A stretch of DNA of 64,000 bases from Hyphomonadaceae bacterium (GCA_014378995.1 JACMMP010000064.1:4363-68362), one strand, 5' to 3'. Shown: positions 11,667 to 64,000, numbered from the stretch's first letter. Notes: generated by a model not told the origin, from the letters alone. Translations and numbers: made by a program.

Positions 11667-11668
11667 CC

Positions 11669-46906: not shown

Positions 46907-47176
46907 GTGGGCGCAGATCGCGCACTCTTCTTCTTGAATGAAATGGTGTGGACGGCCCTCATCGTTAGCGCGCCCATGCTGGGCGCGACCTTGTTGGTCG
47001 GGCTCATTATCAGCGTGGTCCAAGTCGCCACGCAGATTCAGGAGATCACGCTCAGCTACGTTCCAAAGCTCTTGGCGGCCGCGATCATTCTGATTGTCCT
47101 CGGCGGATGGATGCTCGGCAAGCTGACGCAGTTTGCCATCACGCTCTATCAAACCATTCCTTCGCTCGGCGATTAG
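46907..47176 (+). CDS. fliQ: Export apparatus protein FliQ
   Basis: 89 aa from GTG; VGLIISVVQVATQIQEITLSYVPKL. Confidence 0.92.
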   Translation: MGADRALFFLNEMVWTALIVSAPMLGATLLVGLIISVVQVATQIQEITLSYVPKLLAAAIILIVLGGWMLGKLTQFAITLYQTIPSLGD

Positions 47177-47179
47177 GAG

Positions 47180-47932
47180 ATGTTCGAGGCGCTCTCCGAT
47201 CAGGTTACGGCGACGCTGCTGATGAGCCTTCGCATCGCGCCAACCTTCGGCTTTGCGCCGCCCTTCACGCTCATGCGCACGCCCGCCATGGTCCGCTTGG
47301 CGTTGAGCCTCGGGCTTTCCTTTTGGCTGGTGGCCGCAAATCCTGAGAACATACGTCTGCCTGCAAGCGAGGCGCTCCTGGGGGCCGCGGCCAGCGAACT
47401 GTTGTTCGGCATGGTCATAGCGCTCGCGCTGCAGCTCGCGTTTGCGGCGCTACTCACTGTAGGTCGCGCGCTGGACATCCAGGTTGGCTTTGGTTTGGCG
47501 CAAGTCGCCGATCCAACCTTGCGCACTCAAATGCCGCTGGTGGGGACGTTGTTTTCCTATGCGGCGGGCGCCGTTTTTTTCGCCACCAGCGGACCCGCAG
47601 ATCTGCTCGCTATCTGGGCGCGGTCGGTGGAAGAAGTCCCCTTAGGCGGCTTTGTTGCGCCGTCGGACCTTGCCGCCCTGCTCGGCTATATCAACGCGGT
47701 GTTCATGCTGGCGGTCGGTATCGCCGGCGTCGTGTTCATGACTCTGTTTCTGATCGATCTGACGATCGCGCTCATGTCACGCACGTTGCCGCAGATGAAC
47801 GTGCTCGTGCTGGGGTTCCAGGTCAAAACCATAGCGCTTCTGCTGACCTTGCCATTCGTGTTCGCCTTCTCGGGGGCGTTGTTTCTCCGCATCGTGCGCC
47901 TGGCAGTCGAGTCCATCCCGGAGTTGCTCTGA
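47180..47932 (+). CDS. fliR: Export apparatus protein FliR
   Basis: ELLFG, GRALDIQVGFG, SRTLPQMNVLVLGFQVK. Confidence 0.92.
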   Translation: MFEALSDQVTATLLMSLRIAPTFGFAPPFTLMRTPAMVRLALSLGLSFWLVAANPENIRLPASEALLGAAASELLFGMVIALALQLAFAALLTVGRALDIQVGFGLAQVADPTLRTQMPLVGTLFSYAAGAVFFATSGPADLLAIWARSVEEVPLGGFVAPSDLAALLGYINAVFMLAVGIAGVVFMTLFLIDLTIALMSRTLPQMNVLVLGFQVKTIALLLTLPFVFAFSGALFLRIVRLAVESIPELL

Positions 47933-47933
47933 C

Positions 47934-49013
47934 ATGCAAGAGGGCGCCGAGCAGAACAAGACAGAGGAAGCAACGCCGTTCAAGCTGAAGCGCGCGCGCG
48001 AAAAAGGCTCGGTCGCGCGCGGAATGGACCTTGGCTTCTTCTCTGCGCTGGGCGCTTTTTTCCTGTTCATCACCTTCACGGGCGAGGCGATGATTACCAA
48101 TCTGGCCCTCGCCATGCGCAACACGCTTTCGAGCGCCGGCGCCTTGAATTCAACTGACGCTCTGGCCGCGAGCGCACTCATGTTGTGGCCTGCGTTCCAG
48201 CCGGTCGCGCTTTTGGGCGCAACGATCGTCGTCGTCGTGGCGCTCTTCGAAATCGTGCAAGTGGGCGGCATTGTCTTCACCACCCAACCTTTAAAGCCCG
48301 ATTTCAACCGCCTGAACCCCGCCAAGGGGCTCAAGCGCGTGTTCTCGACGCGCATGCTGAAAGAAACGCTGAAGAACATCATCAAGATGGTCGTCTATGC
48401 CGGCGCTTCGTTTTTCCTGATCCGCCACGCATTCGAGGCCCGGGCGCTTTCCATGACGGGCGCGGGATCGCTGGCTGATGCGCTGCACGATCAGGGGGGC
48501 AGATTGTTGTTCGCCTTTGTGGGCATCGCTCTCGTTTTCGCAGCCATCGATCAGGTGCTGATGCGAGGAGAGTTCCGCAAACAGATGCGCATGAGCCGCA
48601 GCGAACTGACCCGCGAGCACAAGGAGCGCGAAGGCGAGCCTCGCCTGAAGCAAAAGCGCAAACAATTGCATGCCGAGTTTGCGCGTCAAACCAAGGGGCT
48701 TGGAGATCTGCGGGGCGCCGACATGCTGATCGTCAACCCCGAACATTTCGCCGTGGCGCTTGCTTATGACGCAAAGACCATGGCCGCGCCAACCGTCGTC
48801 GCCAAGGCGCGCAATCACTTTGCTTTAGCGCTGAAGCAGCGGGCGGGTGAACTCTCGCTGCCCATCTTCCACGCGCCGCCCCTCGCCCGCGCGCTCTATA
48901 AACAGTGCGATAAGGGGGATGCGGCGCCCGGCGATCTCTATCGTGAGATCGCCGATCTTTATCTTGAAGTCGCGCGCAGCAAGCGCCGGGAAGTCGCCCA
49001 TGGCGACGCTTAA
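47934..49013 (+). CDS. flhB: Export switch protein FlhB
   Basis: KTEEAT..KL.RAREKG.V, RMSRSEL.REHKEREGEP, NPEH cleavage motif, PLARALY. Confidence 0.93.
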   Translation: MQEGAEQNKTEEATPFKLKRAREKGSVARGMDLGFFSALGAFFLFITFTGEAMITNLALAMRNTLSSAGALNSTDALAASALMLWPAFQPVALLGATIVVVVALFEIVQVGGIVFTTQPLKPDFNRLNPAKGLKRVFSTRMLKETLKNIIKMVVYAGASFFLIRHAFEARALSMTGAGSLADALHDQGGRLLFAFVGIALVFAAIDQVLMRGEFRKQMRMSRSELTREHKEREGEPRLKQKRKQLHAEFARQTKGLGDLRGADMLIVNPEHFAVALAYDAKTMAAPTVVAKARNHFALALKQRAGELSLPIFHAPPLARALYKQCDKGDAAPGDLYREIADLYLEVARSKRREVAHGDA

Positions 49014-51135
49014 ATCCCTCCTCCGCGATGGCCGGGAGCTTAGCCTGATCGCGGGCGTCGTGCTGATTTTGATTGTCCTTTTCTCGCCGATCCCTCCGCT
49101 TCTGCTGGATCTGGCGCTTCTCGTGAATTTTGGCCTGAGCCTCACCATTCTTCTGTTGACGCTGCACGTGGCGAAACCGGTCGAGTTTTCCACCTTCCCA
49201 TCGCTCTTGCTGATATCGACGTTGTTTCGTCTGTCATTGAACATCGCCGCCACGCGTTTGATCCTCACCGACGCCGAGGCCGGCGAGGTCATCGGCTCGA
49301 TCGGCAGTTTCGCGGTGGGCGGCAATTTTGTCGTCGGTCTCGTGGTTTTTTTCATCCTGGTGGTCGTCCAATACGTGGTCGTCACCTCGGGCGCGCAACG
49401 AGTATCGGAGGTCGCCGCGCGCTTCACCCTCGACTCCATGCCAGGTCAGCAGATGTCGATCGATGCTGACCTCAACATGGGCTTGATCGATCAAAAAGAA
49501 GCAATTCGGCGGCGCGCCGCCCTCGAGAAAGAGGCGTCTTTTTACGGGGCGATGGACGGCGCCAGCAAATTTGTGAAGGGCGATGCAATCGCCAGCGTCA
49601 TTATTCTTCTGATCAACATCATAGCCGGCTGGATCATCGGCGTGGCGCAAATGGGAATGGCTTGGGATGAGGCGCTTGCCCACTTCACGCTCCTCACCAT
49701 TGGCGACGGTATCGCCACGCAATTGCCCGCACTCATCATTTCTACCGCCACCGGCATTATCGTCACGCGCTCATCCGCCGATCGACAATTGAGCACCGAG
49801 GTGTTTCAGCAATTGTCCTCGGCGCCGCGCATTCCGATCATTGTCGGAGGGCTTCTCATCTTGTTGATGCTGCTGCCCGGCATGCCCAAATGGCCGATCT
49901 TGATCGTGCTTGGGCTCGCATACCTCGCGTGGCGGCAAATGCGGTCGCGCGCCGCGCATGCAAGTGCGGAAGCCGGCGCCGAAGACGACGCGGCGCAGGC
50001 TGGGCCATTGGCCGCCGGTGTACTTTCAGTAGCGCTCGGCGCTGATCTGGCGCGCGCGTGGGCGCCAACGAGAGCGCTTGTTGTGGATCGGATCGGCGCG
50101 CTGCGCGATGCGCAAGAGCGGGCGCTGGGTATCGCCTTCCCTGCTCTTACTCTGACGGATGACGCGCGCTTGGGTGGTTTCGAATACGAAATCCGGTTGT
50201 TCGGCGCCCGCTTCGCCAGCGGCGAAATTCACCCCGCGCAAACGTTAGCGATACGCGGCGACAATAATCGACGCCGGCTCGAAGGCGCCGAGACGTTCGA
50301 TCCCGCATTCGGCCTGCCCGCAATTTGGATCGACAGCGAGCGCAATGAGGAGGCGCGCGACGCGGGCTATACCCTCGTCGATCCAGTTACGGTTTTCATC
50401 ACCCATCTGGGTGAAGTGGTGCGCAACGAGGCCGCGACCCTGCTTACCCGCGCCGGCGTGGTAAAATTGGTGGAAGAGGTGCGCTCGCGTCAACCTGGGC
50501 TGGTCGAAGAACTTATCCCGCAAATGATGTCGCTCTCGGATCTCCAGCGCGTCTTGCAGAACCTGCTCGCCGAATCGGTGTCGGTTGCTTCGATTGATCT
50601 CATCATCGAACATCTTGCTGACATCGCGCGCGCTGAGCGTGACCCCGGCGCGCTCACTGAATTACTGCGTCAGCGCCTCAGCCACTCTATCTGCAACAAA
50701 CTTCGCGATCGTCATCGCGATCTCGCCGTGCTTAGCCTCGATCCACGGCTGGAGAACCAAATCGTCAGCGCCGTCGCCTCGAGCCCACGCCGGGACGCGC
50801 TGGCGCTCGATCCGCGCTTGGCCGAGCGTGTTCTGCGCAAGCTCGGCGCGGCCGCCAATGACATGATGCGCCAGGGCCGAGAGCCCGTACTCCTGTGCGG
50901 CGGCGAAATTCGCCGGCACATGCGCACACTCACGCGGCGCACGCTGCCCAAACTCTCCGTACTGGCGGTGAGCGAGATCCCGACCAATATCGAACTACGC
51001 TCTCACGCCATCGTCAAACTCGACGATGACGATCTGCGCAAGGAGGCGCCCGCTCCGCGGGCCGAGCCACAAATAGCACGTCCCGCTCTCGCAGCGGCGC
51101 CGTCGGGGAGGTCAGATGGTCCAGTCTTCCAGTGA
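49000..51135 (+). CDS. flhA: Export gate protein FlhA
   Basis: FSTFPSLLL.STLFRL.LNIA, RVSEVAARFTLDSMPGQQMSIDADL, FYGAMDGASKFVKGDA, DPAFGLPA.WI. Confidence 0.95.
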   Translation: MATLKSLLRDGRELSLIAGVVLILIVLFSPIPPLLLDLALLVNFGLSLTILLLTLHVAKPVEFSTFPSLLLISTLFRLSLNIAATRLILTDAEAGEVIGSIGSFAVGGNFVVGLVVFFILVVVQYVVVTSGAQRVSEVAARFTLDSMPGQQMSIDADLNMGLIDQKEAIRRRAALEKEASFYGAMDGASKFVKGDAIASVIILLINIIAGWIIGVAQMGMAWDEALAHFTLLTIGDGIATQLPALIISTATGIIVTRSSADRQLSTEVFQQLSSAPRIPIIVGGLLILLMLLPGMPKWPILIVLGLAYLAWRQMRSRAAHASAEAGAEDDAAQAGPLAAGVLSVALGADLARAWAPTRALVVDRIGALRDAQERALGIAFPALTLTDDARLGGFEYEIRLFGARFASGEIHPAQTLAIRGDNNRRRLEGAETFDPAFGLPAIWIDSERNEEARDAGYTLVDPVTVFITHLGEVVRNEAATLLTRAGVVKLVEEVRSRQPGLVEELIPQMMSLSDLQRVLQNLLAESVSVASIDLIIEHLADIARAERDPGALTELLRQRLSHSICNKLRDRHRDLAVLSLDPRLENQIVSAVASSPRRDALALDPRLAERVLRKLGAAANDMMRQGREPVLLCGGEIRRHMRTLTRRTLPKLSVLAVSEIPTNIELRSHAIVKLDDDDLRKEAPAPRAEPQIARPALAAAPSGRSDGPVFQ

Positions 51136-52243
51136 ACCCGCACAAAGGCTCGCGCGTCTCCTTTCCTACCTCCAGGCCGACCCAAACAACGCAGCTCTAT
51201 TAATCGACGCCGCCGAGGCGGCCTTAAGCGCCAACGAACCAGCACTGGCGGCCGAATTGATCGAGCGCAGACGGGAAGTCACGCCGCTGGACGCGCGAGA
51301 GCACGCAATCGCTGGGCTCGCGGCAATGGGCATGAAGGATTTTTCGACCGCCGCGGACATCTTCGGTCAACTCGTCGCTGAACATCCGGGCGACCCGGTC
51401 CTTCGCTTCAACCACGCTTGGTCACTAGCGATGACAAAGCAGTTCGAAGCTGCCTTTGAATTGCTTGACGCAGCCACGACCGGGGCTCTGCCGCAAGCGG
51501 CTATGCTGGAAATCCAATTGCTGCACGAGACGCGCCAGTTCGATGAGGCGCGGGCCCGGGCCGATCTTCATCTCTTGGCTCATCCCGATCATCCGGGCCT
51601 GCTCGCAGCAATCTCGGTGCTTGCAATCGACCTCGAAGACATGGATCTGGCCGCCGCGTGTGCAGAGCGCGCCGGTGAACATTCGGATGCGCACACGACC
51701 CTGGGCACAGTGGCGCTAGCCGACGATCGCGCCGATGATGCGCGCGCGTTCTTCGATAGGGCGCTCGCGCGCAATCCCGAAGCGCCTCGCGCGCTCATCG
51801 GAAAAGGCCTCGTCGCGTTGCTCGCCGGAGACAACGCGAACGCTGCGGAGAGCATCGAAAAGGGCGCCGGCATCTTCGACGATCATATTGGCAGCTGGAT
51901 CGCGGCCGGTTGGGCGCGCTTGATCGCAGGTGAGTACGCGCACGCGCGCCGCCATTTCGAACGCGCGCTAAGCATTGACGCCACCTTCGCCGAGAGCCAA
52001 GGCTCGCTTGCTGTGATCTCCGCCATCGAAGACGATCTCGATACGGCCCGAAGACTTGCTGAAACCGCGCTGCGGCTCGATCGCCAGTGCTTCTCCGGCG
52101 CTCTCGCGCAAGCGCTCGTGCTCCAAGCCAACGGCCAAGCGCAAGCCGCACACGCTATAATTGAACGCGCACTGCACACACCGCTCGATCCAAGTGGAAA
52201 GACGATCGCTCACTCGCTTGCTAAGCACGGACTCTTCGCGTGA
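51116..52243 (+). CDS. Cytoplasmic tetratricopeptide-repeat protein
   Basis: Tandem TPR-like units (QADPNN, AEHPGD, AHPDH, ARNPEA, SIDATFAE); GGGGAGG SD; no signal peptide. Confidence 0.85.
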   Translation: MVQSSSEPAQRLARLLSYLQADPNNAALLIDAAEAALSANEPALAAELIERRREVTPLDAREHAIAGLAAMGMKDFSTAADIFGQLVAEHPGDPVLRFNHAWSLAMTKQFEAAFELLDAATTGALPQAAMLEIQLLHETRQFDEARARADLHLLAHPDHPGLLAAISVLAIDLEDMDLAAACAERAGEHSDAHTTLGTVALADDRADDARAFFDRALARNPEAPRALIGKGLVALLAGDNANAAESIEKGAGIFDDHIGSWIAAGWARLIAGEYAHARRHFERALSIDATFAESQGSLAVISAIEDDLDTARRLAETALRLDRQCFSGALAQALVLQANGQAQAAHAIIERALHTPLDPSGKTIAHSLAKHGLFA

Positions 52244-52329
52244 GAAAGAGTTCCCTAGTTCACGCGCAGGGAGAAAAGTTTCGCGGAGGCGCGCCGCAAC
52301 CTGTAGTTGTTAACTAACAGGGGACGGGG

Positions 52330-53037
52330 ATGACGCAAGGCCTTCTTGAACTAGGCGAGATCATGCTGGCCGCGTCTCAGCGGCGCCTCGACATCGTTTC
52401 TCGCAACGTCGCGAACGCCTCGACGCCCGGCTTCAAGAAAGATGTGATGTTCGAAGCAACGCTCGATGCATCATCTCGAGGGGGTGTCGCAAACGTCGCC
52501 GTCACGACGGATTTTGAACAAGGCGCGATGCGCGTCACCGGCCGCGGGCTCGATCTTGCGATCGCAGGCCCGGGATTTTTCCAGGTTCGCGCTGGCGAGC
52601 GGCATTATTATACCAGATCCGGTGCGTTCGAACGCGACGGCGGGGGCCGCCTGGTCAACGCACAAGGCTTCGCGCTGCAATCTGCCGATGGCGGAGACGT
52701 CATTGTTGGCGCTAACGCGACCGAAATTCTCAGCGACGGCGTGGTGCTCGAAGCCGGTCTGCCCGTCGCACGCATCGGCGTCTTCGAAGCTGATGACACC
52801 GCGACGATGCGCGGGCTCGGCGGGACCATGTTTGAGGCGCCCGCTGGAACGATGCGGCAAGGTCTAGCCGTCAATCTGCGCCAAGGCATGCTCGAAGCCG
52901 CCAATGTCGATATGGCCGGCGAAATGCTCGACATGATGGCCGCGATCCGCAGCGCCGAAGTCGGCGCGCGCGTGGTGCAGGCCTACGACACCTTAATCGG
53001 ACAATCGATCTCCACCTTTGGCCGGGGACAAAGATGA
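52330..53037 (+). CDS. flgF: Basal-body rod protein FlgF-like
   Basis: NVANASTPGFK, TGRGLDLAI.GPGFF, YTRSG, QGMLEAANV. Confidence 0.82.
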   Translation: MTQGLLELGEIMLAASQRRLDIVSRNVANASTPGFKKDVMFEATLDASSRGGVANVAVTTDFEQGAMRVTGRGLDLAIAGPGFFQVRAGERHYYTRSGAFERDGGGRLVNAQGFALQSADGGDVIVGANATEILSDGVVLEAGLPVARIGVFEADDTATMRGLGGTMFEAPAGTMRQGLAVNLRQGMLEAANVDMAGEMLDMMAAIRSAEVGARVVQAYDTLIGQSISTFGRGQR

Positions 53038-53804
53038 ACGGCGCCTTCGAAATCGCGGGTGTGGGTCTTGTGTCTCAGCAACAAGCGCTCGACGCCATCG
53101 CAAGCAATATCGCAAACATCAACACGCCGGGCTTCAAGCGCTCGGATGTCCGCTTCTCTGAAATGCTGTCGCGTCACGCCGATGCGGCGAGCCCACGGGG
53201 GGACTTGTCCACCTCTTCGGCGCTCGCGGGCGTCGGGGTCACCATCCTGCTCGCGCTCAACGAACAGGGCGGGATCGAACCGACAGCGCGCCCGCTTGAC
53301 CTTGCCATCGTTGGCGACGGCTTCATCGAACTTATGGGTCCGCGCGGACAAAACCTGTTGTGGCGCGGCGGCACGCTTTCCATTCAGGAGGACGGGCTGC
53401 TGGCCGGCGCGGACGGATTGGCGTTGCGCGCCATGATCAACGTCCCTGAGACAGCAACCGGCCTTTCGATCGATTCCGAAGGCATCGTACGAGCGACCAC
53501 TGGCGACGGCGAGGCGCCGATCGAGCTTGGCCGCATCGCCCTCGTGCAGATCCATGATCCCAGCCAAGTCGAGCGTTTGGATGGCGGTGTCTATCGGCTG
53601 GCGGAGGGCGCCCGCGTCGAGGAATTTCATCAGGGCGACGCGCGCGCCGGCGCCTTCGTCCAGGGCGCGCTTGAGCGCTCCAACGTTGAGATCAACGAAG
53701 AAATGGTGCGCTTGATGATCGTGCAGCGCGCCTATGCCGCCAATGCTCAGCTTGTTCAAGCCGCCGACCAGATGATGGCGATCGCCAACGGCCTCCGGAA
53801 GTAG
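53034..53804 (+). CDS. flgG: Distal rod protein FlgG-like
   Basis: NIANINTPGFKR, LDLAI.GDGF, QGALERSNVE..EEMV.LM.VQRAY.AN. Confidence 0.87.
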   Translation: MNGAFEIAGVGLVSQQQALDAIASNIANINTPGFKRSDVRFSEMLSRHADAASPRGDLSTSSALAGVGVTILLALNEQGGIEPTARPLDLAIVGDGFIELMGPRGQNLLWRGGTLSIQEDGLLAGADGLALRAMINVPETATGLSIDSEGIVRATTGDGEAPIELGRIALVQIHDPSQVERLDGGVYRLAEGARVEEFHQGDARAGAFVQGALERSNVEINEEMVRLMIVQRAYAANAQLVQAADQMMAIANGLRK

Positions 53805-53814: not shown

Positions 53815-54498
53815 ATGGGGGGCGCTTCACTTTTATTCACTCTCACCGCAGGCGCCTGTGCGCTTATCGGAGAAAGTGAAGTCACGCTCAGCGAACGCGC
53901 GATACGGATCCGCGATGTCGCCACGCTGCACTGCCTTGACGAAAGCGTGCGCGATCGGGTGGGCGCGCTCATCATCGCGAGGACGCCGATAGGCGCGCGT
54001 GCGGTGCAGATCAGCCGCGATGGCTTGGCCTCGCTCGTGCGCCGACGCGCGCCCGCCCTGGCGCGGATTGACGCGCGATCCGAGAGCAATGAGATTGTTT
54101 TTTATGCGCCCGACACGCCCACAAATGCGCAGACGCGCTGTTTTCGGACGCTCCGCACCCTAGGCGAAGGTCAGGTTATCACAGGGGCCGACGTCGAGCC
54201 GGCGCCATGCGATGATGACGCCGCCGCAGCGGCGATGCGCTACGATCGTGTCCATTCAGTATTGCGCACGCATGCGCCGGTGGCCGCGGGCGCCTATTTG
54301 GGCGCAGCATTCACTCAGTCTGCGCCCGTCACATCGGAAGGCGCCGCCATGACGCTGGTCGTTACAGCGGGGCCAGTGCAGATCGAGCGCCGCGTCGAGG
54401 CCGTTCAGCCGGCGCGGGCGGGCGAACGCATTTTCGTGCGGGACGAAGACGGCGCCGTGTTTGCCGTCGCCTTCCCAGACCCGAGCGCGGCGCCATGA
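53815..54498 (+). CDS. flgA: P-ring chaperone FlgA-like (divergent)
   Basis: Position between flgG and flgH; SAF-like RTLGEGQVITGADV and C-terminal G.VQIE....Q.A..GERI.VR. Confidence 0.65.
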   Translation: MGGASLLFTLTAGACALIGESEVTLSERAIRIRDVATLHCLDESVRDRVGALIIARTPIGARAVQISRDGLASLVRRRAPALARIDARSESNEIVFYAPDTPTNAQTRCFRTLRTLGEGQVITGADVEPAPCDDDAAAAAMRYDRVHSVLRTHAPVAAGAYLGAAFTQSAPVTSEGAAMTLVVTAGPVQIERRVEAVQPARAGERIFVRDEDGAVFAVAFPDPSAAP

Positions 54499-55070
54499 AG
54501 AGATTCGCGCTCATCGGCCTTGGGCTTCTTCTTCTCAGCACGCCGGCGCACAGCGATAATCTCTTCGGAGAAAGCCGCTTTGCTGCACTGGCGAGCGATC
54601 AAAGCGCGTCGCGCGTTGGCGATGTCATCACCATCGTGGTGTATCAGAGCGCTGAAGCGCGCAACGCCGCCCAAAACACGTCGCGCACGCGCAGATCCTT
54701 CGAGGGAAGCATTCAAGGCGGCGAACTTGATGAGAGCGGCTCGCTCTCGCTCGATGGCGCCTATAGCGGCCAAGGCGAAGTGCGCCGAAGCGAAAGCTTC
54801 GTCACCGAAATCAGCGTCGTTGTCGAAAACGTGCTCGCCAATGGCGACCTTCAGGTCGCCGGCCAGCAAAGCATGAATATCAACGGCGAGACGACACTAG
54901 TGCGGGTGCGCGGGCGGGTTCGGCCGGGCGATATCCAGAACGGCAATCAGGTTTTGTCGACGCGGCTCGCGGACGCGGAAATCTCTTATGACGGCCATGG
55001 GTTTGTATCGCGCAACGCACGACCAAACCTGATCCACCGCTTCTTCGGCCTCTTGGGGCTGGGCGGATGA
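54495..55070 (+). CDS. flgH: L-ring protein FlgH-like, lacking the lipobox Cys
   Basis: D..A.RVGDVITIVV, VLANGDL.V.G, GRVRP.DI..GN.V.S.RLADA.I.Y.G.G. Confidence 0.9.
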   Translation: MKRFALIGLGLLLLSTPAHSDNLFGESRFAALASDQSASRVGDVITIVVYQSAEARNAAQNTSRTRRSFEGSIQGGELDESGSLSLDGAYSGQGEVRRSESFVTEISVVVENVLANGDLQVAGQQSMNINGETTLVRVRGRVRPGDIQNGNQVLSTRLADAEISYDGHGFVSRNARPNLIHRFFGLLGLGG

Positions 55071-56204: not shown

Positions 56205-56543
56205 ATGGACCCGATCTCCGCTGCTCTGATCCACAAGGCGCTCGAAGGCCTCAATCAAAGATTTCTGTTCACCTCCCAGAACATCGCCAACGCCAATACG
56301 CCCGATTACCGGCCGGTGCGGGTGACGTTCGAAGATGAATTGGCGCGCGCGTCACGCCAAGGCGCGCGCGCCATTGAGGCGGTGGAGCCGCGAATAATCA
56401 CTGAAGGCGAAGAGGCGGGTGCGCTTCGGCTCGATCTTGAGCTTGCCACCGCCTCACAGACCGCCGCTCGCTACCGGGCGCTAATCGACATCCTGGGCCG
56501 GCAGATGGCGCTGCATCGCAGTGTCGTGATGGGAGGACGATAA
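56205..56543 (+). CDS. flgB: Proximal rod protein FlgB
   Basis: NIANANTPDYRP..V.FE; AGGAG SD; 112 aa. Confidence 0.85.
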   Translation: MDPISAALIHKALEGLNQRFLFTSQNIANANTPDYRPVRVTFEDELARASRQGARAIEAVEPRIITEGEEAGALRLDLELATASQTAARYRALIDILGRQMALHRSVVMGGR

Positions 56544-56546: not shown

Positions 56547-56975
56547 ATGAACGCGATCGAAATCAGCCGATCCGCGCTGGATGTGGAGTGGCGACGTCTT
56601 GAAATTAGCGCCCAAAATCTAGCGAACCTCAACAGCACCCGCTCGGCGGACGGAAGCGTCTATCAGCCTTTGCGCCTGCTGAGCGGGCCATCGGTGAACT
56701 TCGCCGCGATGCTGAGCGAAGCGAACGTCGCCTTGGCCCCGAGCGGGGTGCAGGTGCTGGGCATCGAGCCGATTGCGGATGGCGCACGCCGCGCGTTTGA
56801 ACCCGCCCATCCGCATGCCAATGAGGAAGGCTTCGTCACCTACCCGGCCATCGATCACGCCGGCGAGATGACGCTCATGATCCGCGCCTCGCGCGCCTAC
56901 GAGGCCAATCTTGCCGCCATCTCGATCGCCCAAGACATGTACGGGCGCGCGCTCGACATCGGACGCCAATCATGA
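56547..56975 (+). CDS. flgC: Proximal rod protein FlgC
   Basis: NLANLNSTR, EPAHPHANEEGFV.YP, EM..MI.ASRAYEAN. Confidence 0.92.
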   Translation: MNAIEISRSALDVEWRRLEISAQNLANLNSTRSADGSVYQPLRLLSGPSVNFAAMLSEANVALAPSGVQVLGIEPIADGARRAFEPAHPHANEEGFVTYPAIDHAGEMTLMIRASRAYEANLAAISIAQDMYGRALDIGRQS

Positions 56976-57316
56976 GCGCAAGTGAAGCGATCGGCGCGGT
57001 GGCCGCCAATTCCGGCGCGGCAGAACCCGCGCTCAGTCTGACGGCGGCCGTTTCGGCGCGTCCCAACTCGGCGGCCGATGTGCAAGGCGTAGGCGGCGCT
57101 GACTTTGCCGGCATGCTCTCGCGCGCAACCGCGGCTGTGGAGGCGCGCGTCGCTCACGCCGACGAAATGGTGCGCGCGTTCGTGGTCGACGATTCCATTC
57201 CGGTTCACGAGGTCACCATCGCCCTGGAAGAAGCGCGGATCGCTGTCGAACTTGCCTTGCAGGTCCGCACGCGCGTTGTCGAATCGTATCGCGAAATCAT
57301 GAACATGCAGCTCTGA
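56972..57316 (+). CDS. fliE: Hook-basal body protein FliE
   Basis: HEV.IALEEA...VELALQVR.R.VESYREIMNMQL. Confidence 0.92.
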   Translation: MSASEAIGAVAANSGAAEPALSLTAAVSARPNSAADVQGVGGADFAGMLSRATAAVEARVAHADEMVRAFVVDDSIPVHEVTIALEEARIAVELALQVRTRVVESYREIMNMQL

Positions 57317-57320: not shown

Positions 57321-58538
57321 ATGGAGGAGCAGTTCGCCCCCACAGAGCAGGCCACGATCTCGCGCCGTGCGATCGCGATCGTAGTCGCGATCCTCGTCGC
57401 CGGCTTGATCGCCTGGTATTTCTTGGCGCTCCGGCAAGATTTTACGCTCCTTTATCGTGATCTAAGGCCCGCGCAAGCAGCCGCCATCGTCGCCGCCCTC
57501 GAAGAAGACGGCGTCGCGTACCGATTGGAAGCGGACGGCGCCGACATCTTGACGCCGGCGCGCGAAACCGACGCCCTCAGGCTGCGCCTTGCATCATCGG
57601 GCGGACCGCTGAGCGGGCTCGACGGCTTTGAGCTCTTCAACGAATCCGACATGGGGCTCACCGATTTCGCGCAGAAGATCCGCTACCAACGCGCCATCCA
57701 AGGCGAACTCGCGCGGACGATCATGACGATGCAAGGCGTCGCGGAGGCGCGCGTGCATGTATCGATGCCAGAGCGGACGCTTTTTCGCGGCGAGCGGCGC
57801 AACGCGGAAGCCGCCGTCACGCTCGTCATGCAGCCCGGCGAGCAAGCAACCGCCGATCGCATTGAAGGCGTGCAGCGCTTGGTCGCCGCTGCTGTCGCCG
57901 ACCTTGCCGCGACGGATGTGGTTGTGCTGAGCGGACGCGGTGAGGTCATCAGCTCGCGCGTCACCGTTTCGCATACAGTCGCCGCACCGATTGCCGATAG
58001 CGCCAGCACGTCGCCCTCGCTTGACTATATCAGCGAGGTCATGCGGTTAGCCGTGCCCAACCGGCGCTTCGATATTCGCGTGGAAGATATTCCGGGCGCC
58101 CTTGCTGGAGCGGCTGACGGCGAGACAGACAGCTCTGCCCGGCGGCTTATCACGATCGCGACAGAAAGTTCGCTCAGTCCCGACGAACGCGAACGGGTTC
58201 GCGCCGAGTTTCTGCGCGCAGACCTAATTGACGGTTCATCGCGTCAATTGCTGGCTTTCCGCGTCGAGCCACTTGCGCCCGACGTCTATGCACCCACGCC
58301 AGACATCGACACAGCAGTGGTCGCGGCATCTGCCGGTCCCGAAACCCGGCGAGCGCCCTTCTTCCCCGCCTGGCTTGTGGTGATCGGCGCATTGCTCGCG
58401 ATCGCCGCACTTGTCGGCGCGCTGATCTGGCGACGAGCAACGACGCCCACGCTTTCGTTCGAACAGCAAAAACTCATAGCCGCCCGGTTGCGCGCTCGGC
58501 TCGAAGCTCAAGGCGTGGAGGCGTTCGATGGCAGATGA
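57321..58538 (+). CDS. fliF: MS-ring protein FliF-like, shortened (405 aa)
   Basis: TM1, GFELFNESDMGLTDFAQKIRYQRAIQGELARTI, ARVHV.MPE..LF, second TM near residues 350-372. Confidence 0.85.
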   Translation: MEEQFAPTEQATISRRAIAIVVAILVAGLIAWYFLALRQDFTLLYRDLRPAQAAAIVAALEEDGVAYRLEADGADILTPARETDALRLRLASSGGPLSGLDGFELFNESDMGLTDFAQKIRYQRAIQGELARTIMTMQGVAEARVHVSMPERTLFRGERRNAEAAVTLVMQPGEQATADRIEGVQRLVAAAVADLAATDVVVLSGRGEVISSRVTVSHTVAAPIADSASTSPSLDYISEVMRLAVPNRRFDIRVEDIPGALAGAADGETDSSARRLITIATESSLSPDERERVRAEFLRADLIDGSSRQLLAFRVEPLAPDVYAPTPDIDTAVVAASAGPETRRAPFFPAWLVVIGALLAIAALVGALIWRRATTPTLSFEQQKLIAARLRARLEAQGVEAFDGR

Positions 58539-58827
58539 CGCGTTGCTAGAGTTCGCCGCGCTTAGTTTCGCAGATCAGTGCGCGGTGGAGCGTCAGTTGC
58601 CGCAGGCGGCCCGTGCTAGGCTTAAGCTGTTCATGCAAAAGCTTGCTGAGCCAGATAACTCGCCGAGCGCAGCGGCGCCCTCCCCCGCGCGCGCCGATCT
58701 TTCCCGCTATTCGCCTTGGCTGCGAAAGCGCATCGCCGTGTTGCTGGCTGGCGGCGAAGACGGCGCGATAACGCCCGCCGCTCGCCAGGCGCTGAACACG
58801 CTCACGGCGCGGAGCCAGCCTGCATGA
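58528..58827 (+). CDS. 99-aa protein at the fliG position (possible FliG N-terminal remnant)
   Basis: GGAGG SD; overlaps both fliF and fliH; LSFADQCAVERQL..AARARL is loosely FliG_N-like. Confidence 0.6.
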   Translation: MADDALLEFAALSFADQCAVERQLPQAARARLKLFMQKLAEPDNSPSAAAPSPARADLSRYSPWLRKRIAVLLAGGEDGAITPAARQALNTLTARSQPA

Positions 58828-59474
58828 GCACGCTTATCCGTCCAGGCCAGATCTCAAACGCCGCGCTCGTGTCCGCACCGCAATGGCGGCCGCTGAGCCA
58901 AGCGACCGCGGCGGATGCTGAGCCTGTGCTAACCGCGGAGCAGATCCGCATCCAGGACTTGGAGGAGGCGCTAGCGCAGCAGCGCATCGCGCATATCGAC
59001 GATCTGAAGCGCGAGCGCAGTGAAGCCAAGAACGAAGCCGAAGCAGCGTTTAAGCGCGATGAGACGGCATCTCTCGCGGCGTTGGAAAAGTGCCTGAGTA
59101 CCGCCGCCGAATCGTTAGCCCGGCGCATTGGCGATTTGGAGGCGCTGGCGCCACTGTTGTGCGAGATCGCGTTGGAAGGCGTGCTCGCGCGCGCGGAAGA
59201 TTACGGCGATCTTGTCGAACGCGCGCTTGAGCGACAGCTCGCCGACATTCGGGGCGAAAGCGTTTTGAAAGTCGCCGTCAGCGGCGCGGACTTCCACGAC
59301 GATAATGCGCTCTCCGCCATGACGGGACGCCATCCAGGACTGAGAATAGAGCGCGACGCGATGCTCCCGGCCGGGTCTTGCCGGATTGATTTGCGTCTCG
59401 GGCAGATTGAACTGTCGCTGCCAAATCATTGGCGCGATCTGCAAACGCGCCTTCGCACCCTGGCTAGCCAATGA
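58824..59474 (+). CDS. fliH: FliH/SctL-like stator of the export ATPase
   Basis: Long helical middle; C-terminal D.MLPAGSCRID...GQIELSL; ATGA overlaps on both sides. Confidence 0.78.
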   Translation: MSTLIRPGQISNAALVSAPQWRPLSQATAADAEPVLTAEQIRIQDLEEALAQQRIAHIDDLKRERSEAKNEAEAAFKRDETASLAALEKCLSTAAESLARRIGDLEALAPLLCEIALEGVLARAEDYGDLVERALERQLADIRGESVLKVAVSGADFHDDNALSAMTGRHPGLRIERDAMLPAGSCRIDLRLGQIELSLPNHWRDLQTRLRTLASQ

Positions 59475-60793
59475 GCGCCGGCCATCCTTTCGCATTGGCG
59501 CTTCGCCAAATGAATATCGCCAAACGTGTCGGCTTTGTCCGGGATGTCGCTCCCGGCCATGTTCAGGCAAACGGTCCGCTCACCAGCGTCGGGGACATGT
59601 GCGAAATCGAAGGCGGTGAGGGACCCGTTCTGGCCGAAGTCGCCGCGGTGGGGCACAACCGCGTGGTGCTCATCCCGCTTGAGCAAGACGCGACAATCGC
59701 CCCTGACGCTCGCGTCGTCGCACGACCGATGCGCGCGCAAGCGGCCGTAGGCGACAGTTTTTCCGGGCGCGCTATCGACGCGCTGGCTGACCCTATCGAT
59801 CATGGCCCACCAATCCTTCCCGGCGCCCTCATGCCGCTGCAAGGCCGGGTGCTCGCGCCGATGGACCGCCAAGCGCCCGATCGCATCGTCGAGACCGGCC
59901 TGCGCGCCATTGACGGTTTGCTGACGCTCGGCCGCGGGCAGCGCATCGGGCTCTTCGCCGCCTCCGGCGTGGGCAAAACAAATTTGATGACCGAGCTTGC
60001 GCTTGGAATTGAGTGCGACCGGTGCGTGCTTTGTCTGGTTGGCGAACGCGGGCGCGAAGTCGAAGCGCTCTGGCGCACGATTTCCGGGCGCGCCGATGCG
60101 GAACGCTACAAATGCGTGGCCGCCACGTCCGACAAGAGCGCCCCACTCCGCGCTCGTGCAGTTTACCAGGCGCTGGCTCTAGCTGAACATTGGCGAGAGA
60201 GGGGCGAGCACGTTCTGCTGATCGTCGACTCGGCTACGCGATTTGCGATGGCGCTGCGGGAGATTGGGCTTGCGGCCGGCGCCCCGCCCACGCTTCGCGC
60301 CTATACGCCAAACGTCTTTGCCGCTCTTCCCCGCTTGGTCGAGCGGTGCGGCGGCGCCCGCGCCGGCGGCGCCATTACGGCGATCATGACGGTGCTGGCT
60401 GAAACCGACGACGTCGACGACCCGATCACCGAGATCATGAAGTCGCTGCTCGACGGGCACATCGTCCTGTCGCGTCACCTGGCCGAACAGAATCACTACC
60501 CGGCCATCGACGTGCTGCGGAGCATTTCGCGGCAGTCGGGCGAACTCATGACGGGCGAGCACAAAAACGCGGCCCGGCGCGCCCTCCAGCTGCTGAGCAC
60601 GTACGAAGACGCGCGTGTCATGATTGAAAGCGGTATCCATAAGCCAGGCGCCAACGCGCGCCTTGACGAGGCGATCGCGGCACGCGAAGGCCTCGTGCGC
60701 TTTTTGTGTCAGCAGACCGGCGAACGCACGCGCCTCGGTGAAACCGTCGCCGGGCTTGCCAGCACTGGCGTCCGCAGGCACGCCCATGCGTGA
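59471..60793 (+). CDS. fliI: Export ATPase FliI/SctN
   Basis: GQRIGLFAASGVGKT, GERGREV, DSATRFAMALREIGL, LDGHIVLSR, YPAIDVL.S.SR. Confidence 0.95.
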   Translation: MSAGHPFALALRQMNIAKRVGFVRDVAPGHVQANGPLTSVGDMCEIEGGEGPVLAEVAAVGHNRVVLIPLEQDATIAPDARVVARPMRAQAAVGDSFSGRAIDALADPIDHGPPILPGALMPLQGRVLAPMDRQAPDRIVETGLRAIDGLLTLGRGQRIGLFAASGVGKTNLMTELALGIECDRCVLCLVGERGREVEALWRTISGRADAERYKCVAATSDKSAPLRARAVYQALALAEHWRERGEHVLLIVDSATRFAMALREIGLAAGAPPTLRAYTPNVFAALPRLVERCGGARAGGAITAIMTVLAETDDVDDPITEIMKSLLDGHIVLSRHLAEQNHYPAIDVLRSISRQSGELMTGEHKNAARRALQLLSTYEDARVMIESGIHKPGANARLDEAIAAREGLVRFLCQQTGERTRLGETVAGLASTGVRRHAHA

Positions 60794-61235
60794 TCGCCCC
60801 CGCCTTCGCCATATGCGTCGCCTTGCCGCCGTGCACGAGGCGCAGTGCAGCTTTGGTGAGCGCGAGCTCTCTCTGGCGCGCGAAGAGGAATCGGCCCGCC
60901 AGTACCATAACGAGACCTCGGCCCGCGCCGTCGATGATCTCATCGCGGATTGGAAAGCCCGCTTAATTGGAGGCGGTGTCGATCCGCACGCGCTTAGTGC
61001 TTACGCTTTCATGTTTGAAGAGAGACGCGCGCAGCACCAAGCGGCGGCGGACGCTCTCGAAACCTCGCGCCTGGAAACCCGGCGCGCTGGTGAGCAGCTT
61101 GCGCTTTATCAGGCTCGGGTAAAGCAGGCGAACAAATCAACGCGCAAACTAAAGCGGAGAATCTCCTCACGCGCCGAGGAAGCAGCGCTTGCCCATGTCG
61201 AGGCCGCGCTTGCCTACAAATGGGTGCGCTCGTGA
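60786..61235 (+). CDS. FliJ/SctO-like coiled-coil stalk (149 aa)
   Basis: Directly after fliI; size and charged helical composition as expected for FliJ. Confidence 0.6.
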   Translation: MRDRPRLRHMRRLAAVHEAQCSFGERELSLAREEESARQYHNETSARAVDDLIADWKARLIGGGVDPHALSAYAFMFEERRAQHQAAADALETSRLETRRAGEQLALYQARVKQANKSTRKLKRRISSRAEEAALAHVEAALAYKWVRS

Positions 61236-61936
61236 ACTTGTCCGCCCTCTTCAGCGTGGCCACTCCTGGCGCCGCACGGATGGATATTTCCGGCGCCGTG
61301 CACAATTCGCTTGAGCCAGACGCAATGACGTTCGCCGACCTGCTTGAGCGTGCGACTTTGACGCGAGCGTTAGAGTTTTCCGAGACAGGCGTGTTCGGCA
61401 GAGACGACGCCCCTCCTGTCCAGAAATTGGAGCGACAGGTCTCCGCACCCAAGCCGGCGAATGCGACGGTCGCTGACACCGTTCTTCTTCCCGCGGCCAG
61501 CGTGCATGCAGCGCAGCTCAAGCCGATTGCTGCACCCGCGCTTAACTCCGCCGCGCCGATGAATCGTGCAGTGCGGCCGACGCCAGCGCTCAGCTTGAGC
61601 AAGCATCATCCCGCGGCAGATCCCGCGCCCCAGGCAAATACCGCACCCCAGCCGCGCGCTGCGGAGCCGCCGGTGAAAACATCAACACGTCAACCATCGC
61701 CGCTCCTCGATGCAGCACGAGCACGGATGCAGGCGAGCGCCGTATTTGTGGCGATGGAAGCAAGCGAAGCAGGGCTTCGTGTTCATGCGCGCCTCGGCGC
61801 GCTCACTTTGAATGACCGCGCGCGCCTGCGTCAGGAAATTGCCGCCGTGCTCGCTCGTCACGGCTTACACGCAGAGCTGACAATCAACGGCGAGGCGGTG
61901 GGCGCCGCCTTCGCGGGAGCTTCCAAGCATGGCTGA
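61232..61936 (+). CDS. FliK-like ruler candidate (234 aa)
   Basis: Sits between the fliJ-like gene and flgD; Pro/Ala-rich middle; C-terminal beta-beta-alpha-beta pattern; GTGA overlap. Confidence 0.5.
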   Translation: MNLSALFSVATPGAARMDISGAVHNSLEPDAMTFADLLERATLTRALEFSETGVFGRDDAPPVQKLERQVSAPKPANATVADTVLLPAASVHAAQLKPIAAPALNSAAPMNRAVRPTPALSLSKHHPAADPAPQANTAPQPRAAEPPVKTSTRQPSPLLDAARARMQASAVFVAMEASEAGLRVHARLGALTLNDRARLRQEIAAVLARHGLHAELTINGEAVGAAFAGASKHG

Positions 61937-62381
61937 AATCGAAGCAATCGGCGCGACACGTGCGTTGGGCGATCCAAGCCCCAGCACCGCTTCAGACGGG
62001 CAATCCGCAACCGACGCATTCGGCCTCGGCTTTGAGGACTTGCTGCAGATCGTGCTGACGCAATTGACCTATCAGGATCCGCTGAAGCCAATGGAGAATT
62101 TCGAGTTCGTCTCCCAGCTCGCGCAATTTTCGCAAATTCAGCAAACCCAAACCATGAGCGAGCGCATCCTGGGCATTCTTCAAGCGCAAGCGGCGAGCCA
62201 AGCCACCAACGTGCTGGGCCGCACAGTCGATATTCCCGCGGGCGCGGGAATCATTTCCGGCCGGGTTGAATCGATTTCCTTCCAGACCGGCGAGCCCCGG
62301 CTGACCGTCGAAACATCCGACGGACGCACGATCTCCAACATCGCCCTTTCCAGCGTCTCTCGCATAGCAGTGGAGGACTAA
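61929..62381 (+). CDS. flgD: Hook-capping protein FlgD (short form)
   Basis: LTQLTYQDPLKPMEN.EFVSQLAQFSQ. Confidence 0.92.
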   Translation: MAEIEAIGATRALGDPSPSTASDGQSATDAFGLGFEDLLQIVLTQLTYQDPLKPMENFEFVSQLAQFSQIQQTQTMSERILGILQAQAASQATNVLGRTVDIPAGAGIISGRVESISFQTGEPRLTVETSDGRTISNIALSSVSRIAVED

Positions 62382-62383
62382 GC

Positions 62384-63514
62384 ATGCTCGGTTCAATCTT
62401 TATCGGCCTAAGCGGCATGAACGCCTTCTCCAAAGGCCTTCGCCAGATCAGCAACAACATCACCAATATCAACTCGACCGGCTACAAGGCGACAGACCTT
62501 GCTTTCGTCAATCTGTTCGGCGGCGCCGGCGGACAAGGCGTCGCCATGAGCGACGGGCGCGTCGATTTTAGTCAGGGAGAGCTTCGGCAGACGGATAGAG
62601 ACCTCGACCTTGCGATCGACGGGGACGGTTTCCTTGTGCTCTTGAAAGACGCCCAGCACGTCTTTGCACGCACCGGCAGCTTTGAAGTCAACGAAGACGG
62701 CGACATCGTTTTGGCCGGCACCGATTATAAGCTCACCGTGCTCGATAGCGCAGGCACGCCCACCGCCCTTTCCGTAGGCTCGCACAGAAGCTCGCCGCCG
62801 CAAGCGACCACTGAAATCAAATTCGCCGATAATCTCTCTTCGTCGGCTCAGACCTTCACGCTCTCCAACGTCAAAGTGTTCACCGCGGCGGGCGACTCCC
62901 AGAATTGGCAGATCAAATTCGAACGCACCCCGACTTCCCCGCCTGGGGAATGGACGGTGACCGTCACCGATGGCGCCGGCGCCTCAGTCGGCCAGCAAAC
63001 GCTTCGCTTCATCGGCAGTATTGCAGACCCCGCAACGTCGCGTCTCAGCTTCGGCTCGGGCGCTGCGGCGGTGGACCTCGATTTCTCCGTCGCATCGTCG
63101 TTCTCGTCTGGAGACGTATCGACGCTGCGGATCTCAGAGTCTGACGGATACGCCGCCGGCGAGATAACGGCGATGGGAATCAATGACGAGGGGGTGTTTG
63201 AAATTTCTTACTCAAACGAACAGAAGAAAACCCTGGGCGCGGTCACCATTGCAACATTTACCGATCTCCAAGCGCTTGAGGCCCAGAGCGGCGGGCTCTT
63301 CACTTATGAGGGCGCCAATGGACGCCAATTCCTGACCAGCGATAGCGACAGCGTTGGCAAGGTCGTGTCTGGGCGTCTTGAATCTTCGAACGTCGATCTA
63401 TCGCGCGAGTTTGGCGAGCTGATCCTAGTGCAGCGCGGCTACCAAGCCTCCTCTCAGGTCATCTCGGTTTCCAACGACATGATCCAGCAATTGTTTGGCA
63501 TCCGAGGGCAGTGA
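62384..63514 (+). CDS. flgE: Hook protein FlgE
   Basis: GLSGM...ISNNITNINSTGYK, DLAIDGDGF, RTGSF, LESSNVDLS.EF..LI..QRGYQASS. Confidence 0.92.
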   Translation: MLGSIFIGLSGMNAFSKGLRQISNNITNINSTGYKATDLAFVNLFGGAGGQGVAMSDGRVDFSQGELRQTDRDLDLAIDGDGFLVLLKDAQHVFARTGSFEVNEDGDIVLAGTDYKLTVLDSAGTPTALSVGSHRSSPPQATTEIKFADNLSSSAQTFTLSNVKVFTAAGDSQNWQIKFERTPTSPPGEWTVTVTDGAGASVGQQTLRFIGSIADPATSRLSFGSGAAAVDLDFSVASSFSSGDVSTLRISESDGYAAGEITAMGINDEGVFEISYSNEQKKTLGAVTIATFTDLQALEAQSGGLFTYEGANGRQFLTSDSDSVGKVVSGRLESSNVDLSREFGELILVQRGYQASSQVISVSNDMIQQLFGIRGQ

Positions 63515-64000
63515 TGAGCGCGCACGCCGAACCTTGGGCGCCGGCCGGGGCGCTCTTTGATGACACGCTCGCCGGCCTTGTTGGCGCGCGTGCGCGCGCC
63601 TGGGCCGCGCGCTGGTTCGGCGCCGGCAAAACCATCGATATACGGGTCTGCGACGGCGCCCGTTGCGCCGGGCCTCCGAGCGGCGCCACCACCTGGGAAA
63701 GCCTTGAACCCGGGCTGGTCCTCGCGCTCGATCCGAGAGCGCACACTCCAATCGCATGTTGGATGCTGGGGCTCGATACCGGAACGCGCGTATTGAAGGA
63801 GGCGGAGCAAAAACTCTTTCAGGACCTCGCCTGCACGACCGCGCAGGATTTTATACGCGACGTTGCGGGCGTGTTTTCACTTGGCCCCGACACCCGCGAA
63901 CGCGGGGCATACCGGCACGGCAGAGACGACATCGCCTTGAACGTCAGCATCGGCGCCGCATCCAACGTCTTAAACCTCTACGCGTTGCGACCGCGCGCCA
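63514..64000 (+). CDS. Partial ORF continuing the operon (possible divergent FliM/SctQ-like N-terminus)
   Basis: TGATG overlap with the flgE stop; open to the window end: MSAHAEPWAPAGALFDD...AWAARWFG...; absent from the ORF track because it has no stop. Confidence 0.65.
   Translation, partial: MSAHAEPWAPAGALFDDTLAGLVGARARAWAARWFGAGKTIDIRVCDGARCAGPPSGATTWESLEPGLVLALDPRAHTPIACWMLGLDTGTRVLKEAEQKLFQDLACTTAQDFIRDVAGVFSLGPDTRERGAYRHGRDDIALNVSIGAASNVLNLYALRPRA

Follow-up and report, generated by a model that had tools for sequence, protein, structure and literature searches.

The injectisome is the classic example of a flagellum that became a secretion weapon. Its exaptation has been described in a study that also mentions loci resembling those of flagella in a dozen species without flagella (Abby and Rocha, 2012; PMC3459982). 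In Lysobacter enzymogenes, L. capsici and L. gummosus, a 22-gene flagellar cluster accompanied by a sigma factor has been reported as apparently non-functional (de Bruijn, 2015; PMC4657364), and the Lysobacter 'FT3SS' lacks fliC, fliD, flgK, flgL, fliG, fliM, motA and motB (Xiong, 2023; PMC9927559). We analysed a stretch of 64,000 nucleotides from a Hyphomonadaceae bacterium (hereafter the window; positions 4363-68362 of contig C127, which has 85,669 bases, in G000, a genome assembly that is 88% complete). It ends in a cluster of flagellar-type genes that begins with fliQ at window position 46907 and runs past the window end. We consider it probable that this cluster represents a motorless, filament-less branch of the flagellum, a non-rotating rod-hook conduit predicted to export giant Rhs toxins as a late substrate in flagellin's place. 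The observations that carry this reading are the gene content, a single FlhA clade, selection, co-occurrence and linkage with Rhs, variable toxin tips and a common promoter motif. The clade would be a second flagellum-to-weapon case with another solution, in which rod, hook and rings are kept without a secretin, and it comes with a candidate cargo. With somewhat less assurance, we favour the wider view of a third major type III branch, in which the flagellum would have been independently exapted as an interbacterial weapon. Flagellin would have been swapped for Rhs polymorphic toxins of 350-700 kDa (more than 1,200 distinct cargo clusters, which would be the largest type III substrates known), with the rod, hook, L/P rings and sigma-28 late step kept and with horizontal spread among Caulobacterales, sphingomonads, Burkholderiales and Lysobacter.

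Judged by locus-tag order (the FlhA tree described below holds no Lysobacter apparatus sequence), the cluster is the Lysobacter 'FT3SS'. The missing set is the same (PMC9927559), and the tags of L. enzymogenes OH11 follow the same order and spacing: fliR Le1127, flhA Le1129, rod genes Le1130 and Le1131, flgH Le1133, flgI Le1134, flgC Le1136, fliF Le1138, flgD Le1144, flgE Le1145, fliN Le1147 and fliP Le1149 (Fulano, 2020; PMC7688988). A sigma gene and a further gene lie downstream in Lysobacter, as here (PMC4657364). The Lysobacter parallel drawn by the original prediction, a note made from the window alone, is real. Unlike the Lysobacter FT3SS, the alphaproteobacterial loci inspected, and only these, have a gene for a tetratricopeptide repeat (TPR) protein between flhA and flgF. 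The accessible text of the Lysobacter papers treats the cluster as the remains of the genus's own lost flagellum, whereas here it is a single mobile clade, and its alpha- and betaproteobacterial carriers have ordinary flagella as well. The same text names no Rhs cargo or dedicated promoter and takes fliI, flhB and fliQ from another locus; as listed in Table S3 of PMC7688988, these three OH11 genes probably belong to the locus of a secretin-less type III secretion system (T3SS). The word 'Rhs' does not occur in the main text of PMC4657364. Among the matches listed for the giant Rhs family, 10 of 120 come from L. enzymogenes and L. gummosus, and no paper tying the cluster to Rhs was found in the open-access literature (subscription papers not covered). 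The apparatus has already been described from one genus and interpreted differently there; what appears to be new is the wider family, together with its cognate toxins and the link through the promoter.

The gene content recurs in nearly constant order in 15 intact loci from distant Proteobacteria. Five are in the host genus (G000, the host itself, G007, G035, G569 and G577); the others are G401, G434, G446, G560, G561, Duganella sp. CF458 and the plasmid or megaplasmid loci of Burkholderia ubonensis, Ralstonia solanacearum, Variovorax and Undibacterium. The non-canonical gene order described from the window is thus present but not idiosyncratic, being conserved across classes. Host flagellin, FliG and MotA queries gave no match in any of the 15 loci (tblastn, with the host fliC; MotB was not searched). 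In a midpoint-rooted FlhA/SctV tree of 41 rows, only two of which lie outside the Proteobacteria, the 15 cluster FlhAs group together as a single clade (100/100) within the flagellar part, distinct from the ordinary FlhA of the host, as had been anticipated. SctV forms a separate clade, also at 100/100, away from the cluster FlhAs, and the tree places no firm sister group for the latter. Rough dN/dS ratios (nonsynonymous over synonymous substitution rates) of 0.09-0.25 were obtained for 16 genes in two pairs, with the proportion of synonymous differences at 0.54-0.73 and synonymous sites near saturation. The cluster genes are under purifying selection, in agreement with the earlier argument that all frames are open and not decaying. 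The host also has the separate canonical flagellar set whose existence was to be checked: second copies of flhA, flhB, fliP, fliI, fliF and flgC-I lie on other contigs, with the single Flagellin_N match of the genome on C148, the single FliG_C on C15 and the single MotA on C129. The tree, the content of the 15 loci, the host set and selection together uphold the proposal of an independent non-rotating exporter distinct from both flagellum and injectisome, export itself being presumed.

The cluster occurs in 4 of 60 other host-genus genomes and on nine plasmid records, and cluster-type FlhA in at least 3 of 400 genomes across the phylum (a lower bound, as this search scored two candidates per genome). 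Its carriers are scattered bacteria of soil and water. Some loci are flanked by insertion sequences or integrases. This patchy distribution, the plasmids and the flanking mobile elements therefore suggest that the cluster spreads horizontally. The closest named FliF homologues are from Vitreimonas and Terricaulis. Six R. solanacearum megaplasmid records, including AP024102.1, have the cluster beside flagellar and hrp export genes, and three of them have ginger or Curcuma as host. A 97-kb plasmid of Photobacterium toruni (L083) has a long-branch FlhA in a flgA-flhA-fliM/N context, outside the clade.

Giant open reading frames (ORFs) beside the plasmid loci and that of G035 (4,897, 4,442, 12,948 and 3,360 residues) have a common N-terminus and Rhs repeats. 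This likely cargo and the cluster's own sigma factor had both been missed by the original prediction. In the host genus (61 genomes), the FlgH-profile marker and the Rhs N-terminus (Rhs-N) are both found in exactly the same five genomes, G000, G007, G035, G569 and G577. In a draw of 400 genomes across the phylum, the derived FlhA is present in three and Rhs-N in the same three plus G291; in the family of G291 (121 genomes), the system is present in four and Rhs-N in the same four plus G291 and G529. Naive probabilities of these overlaps are 2e-6 (genus), 4e-7 (phylum) and 6e-7 (family), values overstated by kinship. Both Rhs-only genomes bear traces of the cluster. In G291 (C16) it is deleted internally, leaving an flhA-fliP fusion, with the sigma gene kept and TPR genes still flanking Rhs; in G529 (C22) the deletion runs from inside Rhs to fliN, and the sigma gene is again kept. 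These are two independent internal deletions, in which cluster and Rhs decayed jointly. In 11 of the 15 intact loci the cluster has a complete Rhs start next to it, and in one (G007) a fragment; Rhs is unlinked, and present elsewhere in the genome, in G000, G446 and G561. Among 11 metagenome Rhs loci, two are divergent from fliQ.

The N-terminal 130 residues of the Rhs family recruit 1,284 clusters at 50% identity (E up to 1e-10) and, among the 150 matches listed, nearly all align from residue 1; members with a named source belong to Sphingomonas and its kin, Burkholderia, Paraburkholderia, Collimonas and Lysobacter. The proteins range from 3,000 to 6,700 residues and bear LysM. In a set of 215 long members starting MVxI (median 3,981 residues), glycine makes up 28% of the first 35 residues, only eight have K/R within the first eight residues, and 192 have a hydrophobic segment about 600 residues before the C-terminal end. 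Their last 110 residues fall into 152 tip clusters, and 11 proteins picked for annotated tips gave 11 different toxin domains; tip domains include HNH nucleases, REase folds, EndoU, an RNase A-like domain, a deaminase, ADP-ribosyltransferases, a metallopeptidase and Ntox17. By its sequence features, the Rhs partner is of the polymorphic-toxin pattern, with a conserved, putatively trafficking N-terminus and a variable toxin tip. In G035 a colicin-type DNase tip is accompanied by a small downstream gene and by LysM-bearing orphan tip modules. Small genes also lie downstream of Rhs in Ralstonia and B. ubonensis, with one Immunity protein 22 match below the cut-off.

Rhs proteins of type VI secretion systems (T6SS) resemble this family in their YD-repeat shell, variable C-terminal toxin, small downstream gene and orphan tip arrays. 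The cluster-linked proteins differ from them in their common N-terminus, rich in Gly, which takes the place of PAAR/VgrG or a signal peptide, and in having LysM with a hydrophobic segment before the tip; they are tied to a flagellar-type apparatus, occur without a T6SS and are two to four times longer than typical T6SS Rhs proteins. No PAAR or VgrG domain was found in the Rhs proteins scanned, and T6SS VipB was not found in G000 (88% complete), G007, the closed G035 or G291; it is present in G434. The PAAR-Rhs T6SS effector of PMC11762177 is a different type of protein.

In the host, the Rhs start lies on C175:54761-56875 (705 residues to the contig end; C175:54664-56875 with its promoter motif), and the probable C-terminal 629 residues, whose tip matches no assigned toxin type, are on C155:6386-8538, followed by a 94-aa gene; an orphan core fragment is also on C155. 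Two other large host frames are without the family N-terminus, an adhesin-like one of 4,440 residues (C129:99958-113277) and an Rhs-like one of 1,443 residues (C44:7513-11841). As for structure, the Rhs N-terminus was predicted with an uninformatively low mean predicted local distance difference test score (pLDDT) of 44, and prediction of a complex of the cluster's TPR protein, a second TPR protein (TPR2) and its 112-aa protein with the Rhs N-terminus gave a score of 0.00.

The predicted regulation of Rhs also points to the cluster. With a sigma-28 consensus chosen in advance, 11 of 29 regions upstream of Rhs gave a match, compared with a mean of 0.24 and a maximum of 2 in shuffles, none on the reverse strand and 1.3% of 600 host genes. 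A TAAA-N15-GCCGATAA-like motif, a candidate promoter for the cluster sigma, is enriched upstream of Rhs genes. The refined motif is CTAAAC-N14-(G/C/T)C(C/G)GA(T/C), and CTAAAC lies 60-135 nt upstream of 26 of the 29 Rhs genes (16 of 19 non-seed genes) versus 8 of 2,002 host genes. Near the starts of the cluster genes it was found for fliQ in 2/12, flgF 0/11, TPR 0/9, TPR2 1/9 and sigma 0/12. When the host site was left out of the matrix, the Rhs promoter of the host still scored highest in its genome (23.0 versus 19.8). No protein passes the FliA cut-off in any of the five host-genus genomes, the cluster sigma itself falling below the FliA_WhiG cut-off, and the frame lengths of the other sigma matches in these genomes suggest RpoD/RpoH-like proteins. 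Given the promoter motif, the matrix rank and the lack of a FliA above the cut-off, the simplest prediction for the unlinked Rhs gene of the host is that it is the late gene of the cluster.

The machine that would export it is reduced and altered in a consistent manner. Pfam and NCBIfam matches agree with the earlier view that export gate, ATPase, rod, rings and hook are intact. FliF, the MS ring protein (57321..58538, matched by Pfam/NCBIfam), is indeed short in the host, with 405 residues and only the N-terminal YscJ_FliF domain (405-517 residues across 11 loci). The lack of a lipid anchor in the L-ring protein FlgH (54495..55070, Pfam) was borne out by inspection of the host and of 11/11 loci by eye, all with a cleavable-looking signal peptide without a lipobox Cys. 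In the FliG slot between fliF and fliH (58528..58827, 99 residues), the original prediction had seen a replacement. The ORF is most likely a FliG remnant, with FliG N- and M-like domains and without the torque (C) domain. It measures 97-236 residues across relatives, and the Ralstonia copy has a weak FliG_M match (E 0.006). When the G560 copy was modelled (pLDDT 74), the three best matches in a set of 48,161 chains were all FliG: residues 1-44 superpose on FliG-N (Z 6.0, root-mean-square deviation 1.6, 42 aligned) and residues 79-160 on FliG-M (Z 7.1, deviation 2.5, 75 aligned), leaving no residues over for the torque domain. A Z below 8 is not decisive alone, and it is the combination of this fold match with gene position that makes the remnant reading persuasive. 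Comparison with host FliG by hhalign was weak (E 0.3 and 0.045), no meaningful sequence match was found in the PDB, and Foldseek returned nothing under E 0.001, with six FliG or C-ring entries among its weak rows. In FlhA (49000..51135; Pfam FHIPEP, residue check and tree), the channel residues are conserved, and positions 456/459/490 (D/E, F/Y, T), which we take to be late-chaperone docking residues, are kept in 15/15 loci despite the lack of any recognised flagellin, FlgK/L or FliD.

These features set the cluster apart from the systems it resembles. With the canonical flagellum, including secondary Laf/Flag-2 systems, it has in common the export gate, rod, rings, hook, hook cap and FliA-like sigma. 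Unlike it, the cluster has a FlgH that is not a lipoprotein and no recognised flagellin, FlgK/L, FliD, MotAB, FliG torque domain, FlgJ or FlgM; in the clusters inspected there is neither room nor annotation for FlgK, FlgL and FliD (no profile search was made for these or for MotB). With the injectisome it has in common a flagellum-derived type III gate, an ATPase, a reduced C ring, the loss of motor and filament, and mobility. It differs in that its FlhA stands on the flagellar side of the tree and not with SctV, in keeping FliE, FlgB/C/F/G, FlgD/E and the L/P rings, and in having its own sigma-28-like factor; no secretin was found among the cluster ORFs, and no needle or translocon genes were seen. 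FliE, FlgB and FlgC serve as flagellum-specific markers in PMC3459982, and flagellum detectors based on them will call such loci flagella. The Buchnera flagellar basal bodies are filament-less too, with a proposed secretion role (cited in PMC3459982). The present cluster is accessory and mobile, a clade accompanied by its own toxin family. The Buchnera basal body is the vertically eroded sole flagellum of a symbiont.

We propose the following mechanism. The gate, ATPase, MS ring and trimmed C ring (the FliG N+M remnant, the FliM/SctQ-like protein and FliN) would assemble and secrete the rod and hook, and the L and P rings, freed of their role as a bushing, would provide passage through the outer membrane instead of a secretin. 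The cluster's FliA-like sigma would then transcribe Rhs from its TAAA-N15-CCGAT-type promoter, and Rhs would take flagellin's place as the late substrate. The unfolded chain would be fed N-terminus first, its invariant Gly-rich start acting as export signal, and the TPR proteins probably escort it to the conserved docking site of FlhA. Outside the cell a shell would form as the YD repeats fold, and LysM with the hydrophobic segment about 600 residues from the end would help to place the toxin tip in a neighbouring cell. The tip would act as nuclease, deaminase, ADP-ribosyltransferase or protease, mostly on competing bacteria, with the small downstream gene conferring immunity. If true, this would be a new delivery route for Rhs polymorphic toxins, would extend type III secretion to the killing of bacteria and to substrates of very large size, and would explain the 'flagellar' genes kept by non-motile Lysobacter.

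Several points weigh against this mechanism. The passage of Rhs through the cluster machine is a prediction from sequence, and the weakest links of the scheme are the export of chains of 3,000-6,700 residues and the entry of the tip into the target. The cargo is very large (median 3,981 residues, one member of 12,948), and we know of no type III substrate that giant Rhs does not far exceed in size. The classic PxxxxDPxG Rhs cleavage motif is present in only 16 of the 215 long members, the FlhB cleavage loop reads NPEH, NPDH or NPVH in 6 of the 16 loci and could not be located in another, and neither FlgM nor FlgJ was recognised in the cluster. The host Rhs is split by the assembly, apart from the cluster, with its middle not found, and is not shown intact. 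The genomes and upstream regions are kin, so that the counts overstate independence. Nine of the 11 metagenome Rhs loci have no cluster gene in the short flank available, one of nine plasmid records with the system (YC45) is without Rhs-N, and 6 of 14 plasmid records with Rhs-N are without the system on the same record, chromosomes not having been searched (three R. pseudosolanacearum, Undibacterium KW1 and two Eleftheria). The three R. pseudosolanacearum records are potato isolates; one locus (L059) has the promoter motif and no cluster gene within 20 kb. Published Lysobacter work, finally, assigns other substrates and a twitching role to the cluster (PMC7688988, PMC7277350).

We may wonder, then, whether cluster and Rhs form an island under a common sigma factor while Rhs leaves the cell otherwise, by lysis, type I/II secretion or vesicles, the rod-hook being a contact sensor, an anchor or a checkpoint that switches the toxin on. 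Cargo size, the dispersal of Rhs copies away from the cluster and the plasmid records with Rhs-N and no system would all fit, and regulation alone would account for co-occurrence and promoter. We nevertheless hold this to be unlikely: the Rhs proteins have no Sec-type start, PAAR or VgrG, four of the five genomes have no T6SS, the N-terminus is invariant and placed at residue 1 in nearly all family matches listed, and the gate, ATPase and late-chaperone dock are complete with no alternative late substrate in sight.

The Lysobacter results suggest a general exporter of lytic enzymes that also helps type IV pilus twitching, with Rhs as a passenger of the island. In L. enzymogenes OH11, mutants no longer secrete three proteins, kill yeast or twitch (PMC7688988, PMC7277350). 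Secretion of FlgD-Flag depends on flhA, fliP and fliR (PMC7688988), which we count in favour of the proposed rod-hook exporter. Yet the OH11 fliI (Le1576), flhB (Le1593) and fliQ (Le1591) lie some 430-450 genes from the cluster (Le1127-Le1149; PMC7688988), and Lysobacter has a separate secretin-less T3SS (PMC4657364), so that results based on fliI and flhB may belong to another machine. The published FT3SS results would thus mix two loci. Passenger status would also leave the common promoter, the unlinked co-occurrence and the joint decay unexplained, and we regard this explanation as quite improbable.

It is very improbable that the cluster builds a second flagellum, completed with flagellin, hook-junction proteins and stators taken from the ordinary set of the host. 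The complete rod, rings and hook speak for it, and flagellin is present in the host and in four of the five carriers tested. Against it stand the FliG remnant without its torque domain, the L ring without a lipid anchor, the position of the host's one FliG_C and one MotA on other contigs, and Lysobacter carriers without any flagellin or stator (PMC9927559). Slighter still is the chance of an adhesion stalk that displays the giant proteins at the hook tip, toxin tips being secondary. This is suggested by the 12,948-aa member of the Undibacterium YM2 plasmid (L024:3784-42630), in which a common start of 620 residues is followed mostly by CARDB, Ig and cadherin-like domains, then PT-HINT and a metalloprotease, and by some other members with Ig-like or carbohydrate-binding domains; the majority of long members, however, combine an Rhs shell with an enzymatic tip that varies greatly, and have small genes downstream. 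In the adjacent cluster of the YM2 plasmid, flgI is split and fliH lies away from its usual position. That the cluster is what decay has left of a former flagellum, as the term non-functional for the Lysobacter cluster (PMC4657364) and the deleted copies in G291 and G529 might suggest, is already largely refuted by identical losses in 15/15 intact loci, by the low dN/dS of 16 genes in two pairs (synonymous sites near saturation) and by occurrence beside intact flagella and on plasmids.

The cluster genes, all on the + strand, mostly abut or overlap, and the at least 22 co-oriented, mostly overlapping open frames counted originally are all present: 21 are complete, from fliQ (46907) to flgE (63514), and the 22nd is cut by the window end. 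The export-gate genes come first: fliQ (46907..47176, Pfam Bac_export_3), fliR (47180..47932, Bac_export_1), and the gate and switch gene flhB (47934..49013, Bac_export_2), with cleavage loop NPEH. After flhA, the expected TPR gene (51116..52243, identified by profile match and matched in Pfam) encodes a family-specific protein of 375 residues, a candidate chaperone that in relatives often adjoins the Rhs gene. Used as a search marker, it retrieved three unrelated loci out of five (L013, L014 and L016, with no cluster gene), which are Hyphomonas and related alphaproteobacterial proteins about 50% identical to its C-terminal third. Then follow flgF (rod, 52330..53037) and flgG (distal rod, 53034..53804), both with Pfam/NCBIfam matches, flgA (P-ring chaperone, 53815..54498, weak ChapFlgA match), flgH, flgI (P ring, 55067..56194, Pfam), the proximal rod genes flgB (56205..56543, NCBIfam FlgB, E 5e-12) and flgC (56547..56975, Pfam), fliE (56972..57316, Pfam), fliF and the FliG remnant. 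The host fliH-, fliJ- and fliK-like genes are without a Pfam/NCBIfam family match and are named from position and relatives: fliH-like (58824..59474) from a FliH match of the G434 orthologue and a profile link, fliJ-like (60786..61235) from position and a weak FliJ match in G446, and fliK-like (61220..61936) from position and a low-complexity linker only. Between the first two lies the ATPase gene fliI (59471..60793, Pfam/NCBIfam), with an intact Walker A motif by residue check. The window ends with flgD (hook cap, 61929..62381, Pfam), flgE (hook, 376 residues, 62384..63514, Pfam/NCBIfam) and the start (63511..64000) of a FliM/SctQ-like C-ring protein of 263 residues (C127:67873-68664 in full), with FliMN_C at its C-terminus only.

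As foreseen, the cluster continues on the + strand beyond the window, with the remainder of the FliM/SctQ-like gene, fliN (C127:68661-68960, FliMN_C), a fliO-like gene (C127:68957-69364), fliP (C127:69361-70092, FliP match), the FliA-like sigma (C127:70089-70826, Sigma70 r2/r4), TPR2 of 184 residues (C127:70838-71392, TPR match) and a family-specific gene of 112 residues (C127:71419-71757), after which unrelated genes follow. The forecast of fliN and fliP downstream, without fliC, motA or full fliG, came true, none of these three being found in the remaining 17 kb of the contig. The absence of flagellin and stator genes noted for the window extends, for fliC and motA, to the rest of the contig and to the 15 loci. 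A flagellar-type regulator does exist, the sigma gene lying 1.7 kb past the window end. The 112-aa protein belongs to no Pfam, NCBIfam or named Atlas family, and its identity as FlgM or SctX is unsupported.

Upstream of fliQ, a REase-ARP-like gene (window 41019-41783, +) is followed by a divergent run (41793-46497, -) of two membrane proteins, a 739-aa TPR protein (43018-45237) and a membrane-anchored SNase-like nuclease (45460-46497); the latter two were not seen by eye beside the cluster in G007 or G035. Farther upstream, the window holds an ordinary phenylacetate catabolism run (8359-19886, +; paaZ-, paaG- and paaABCDE-like by eye) after a 2-oxoacid dehydrogenase.

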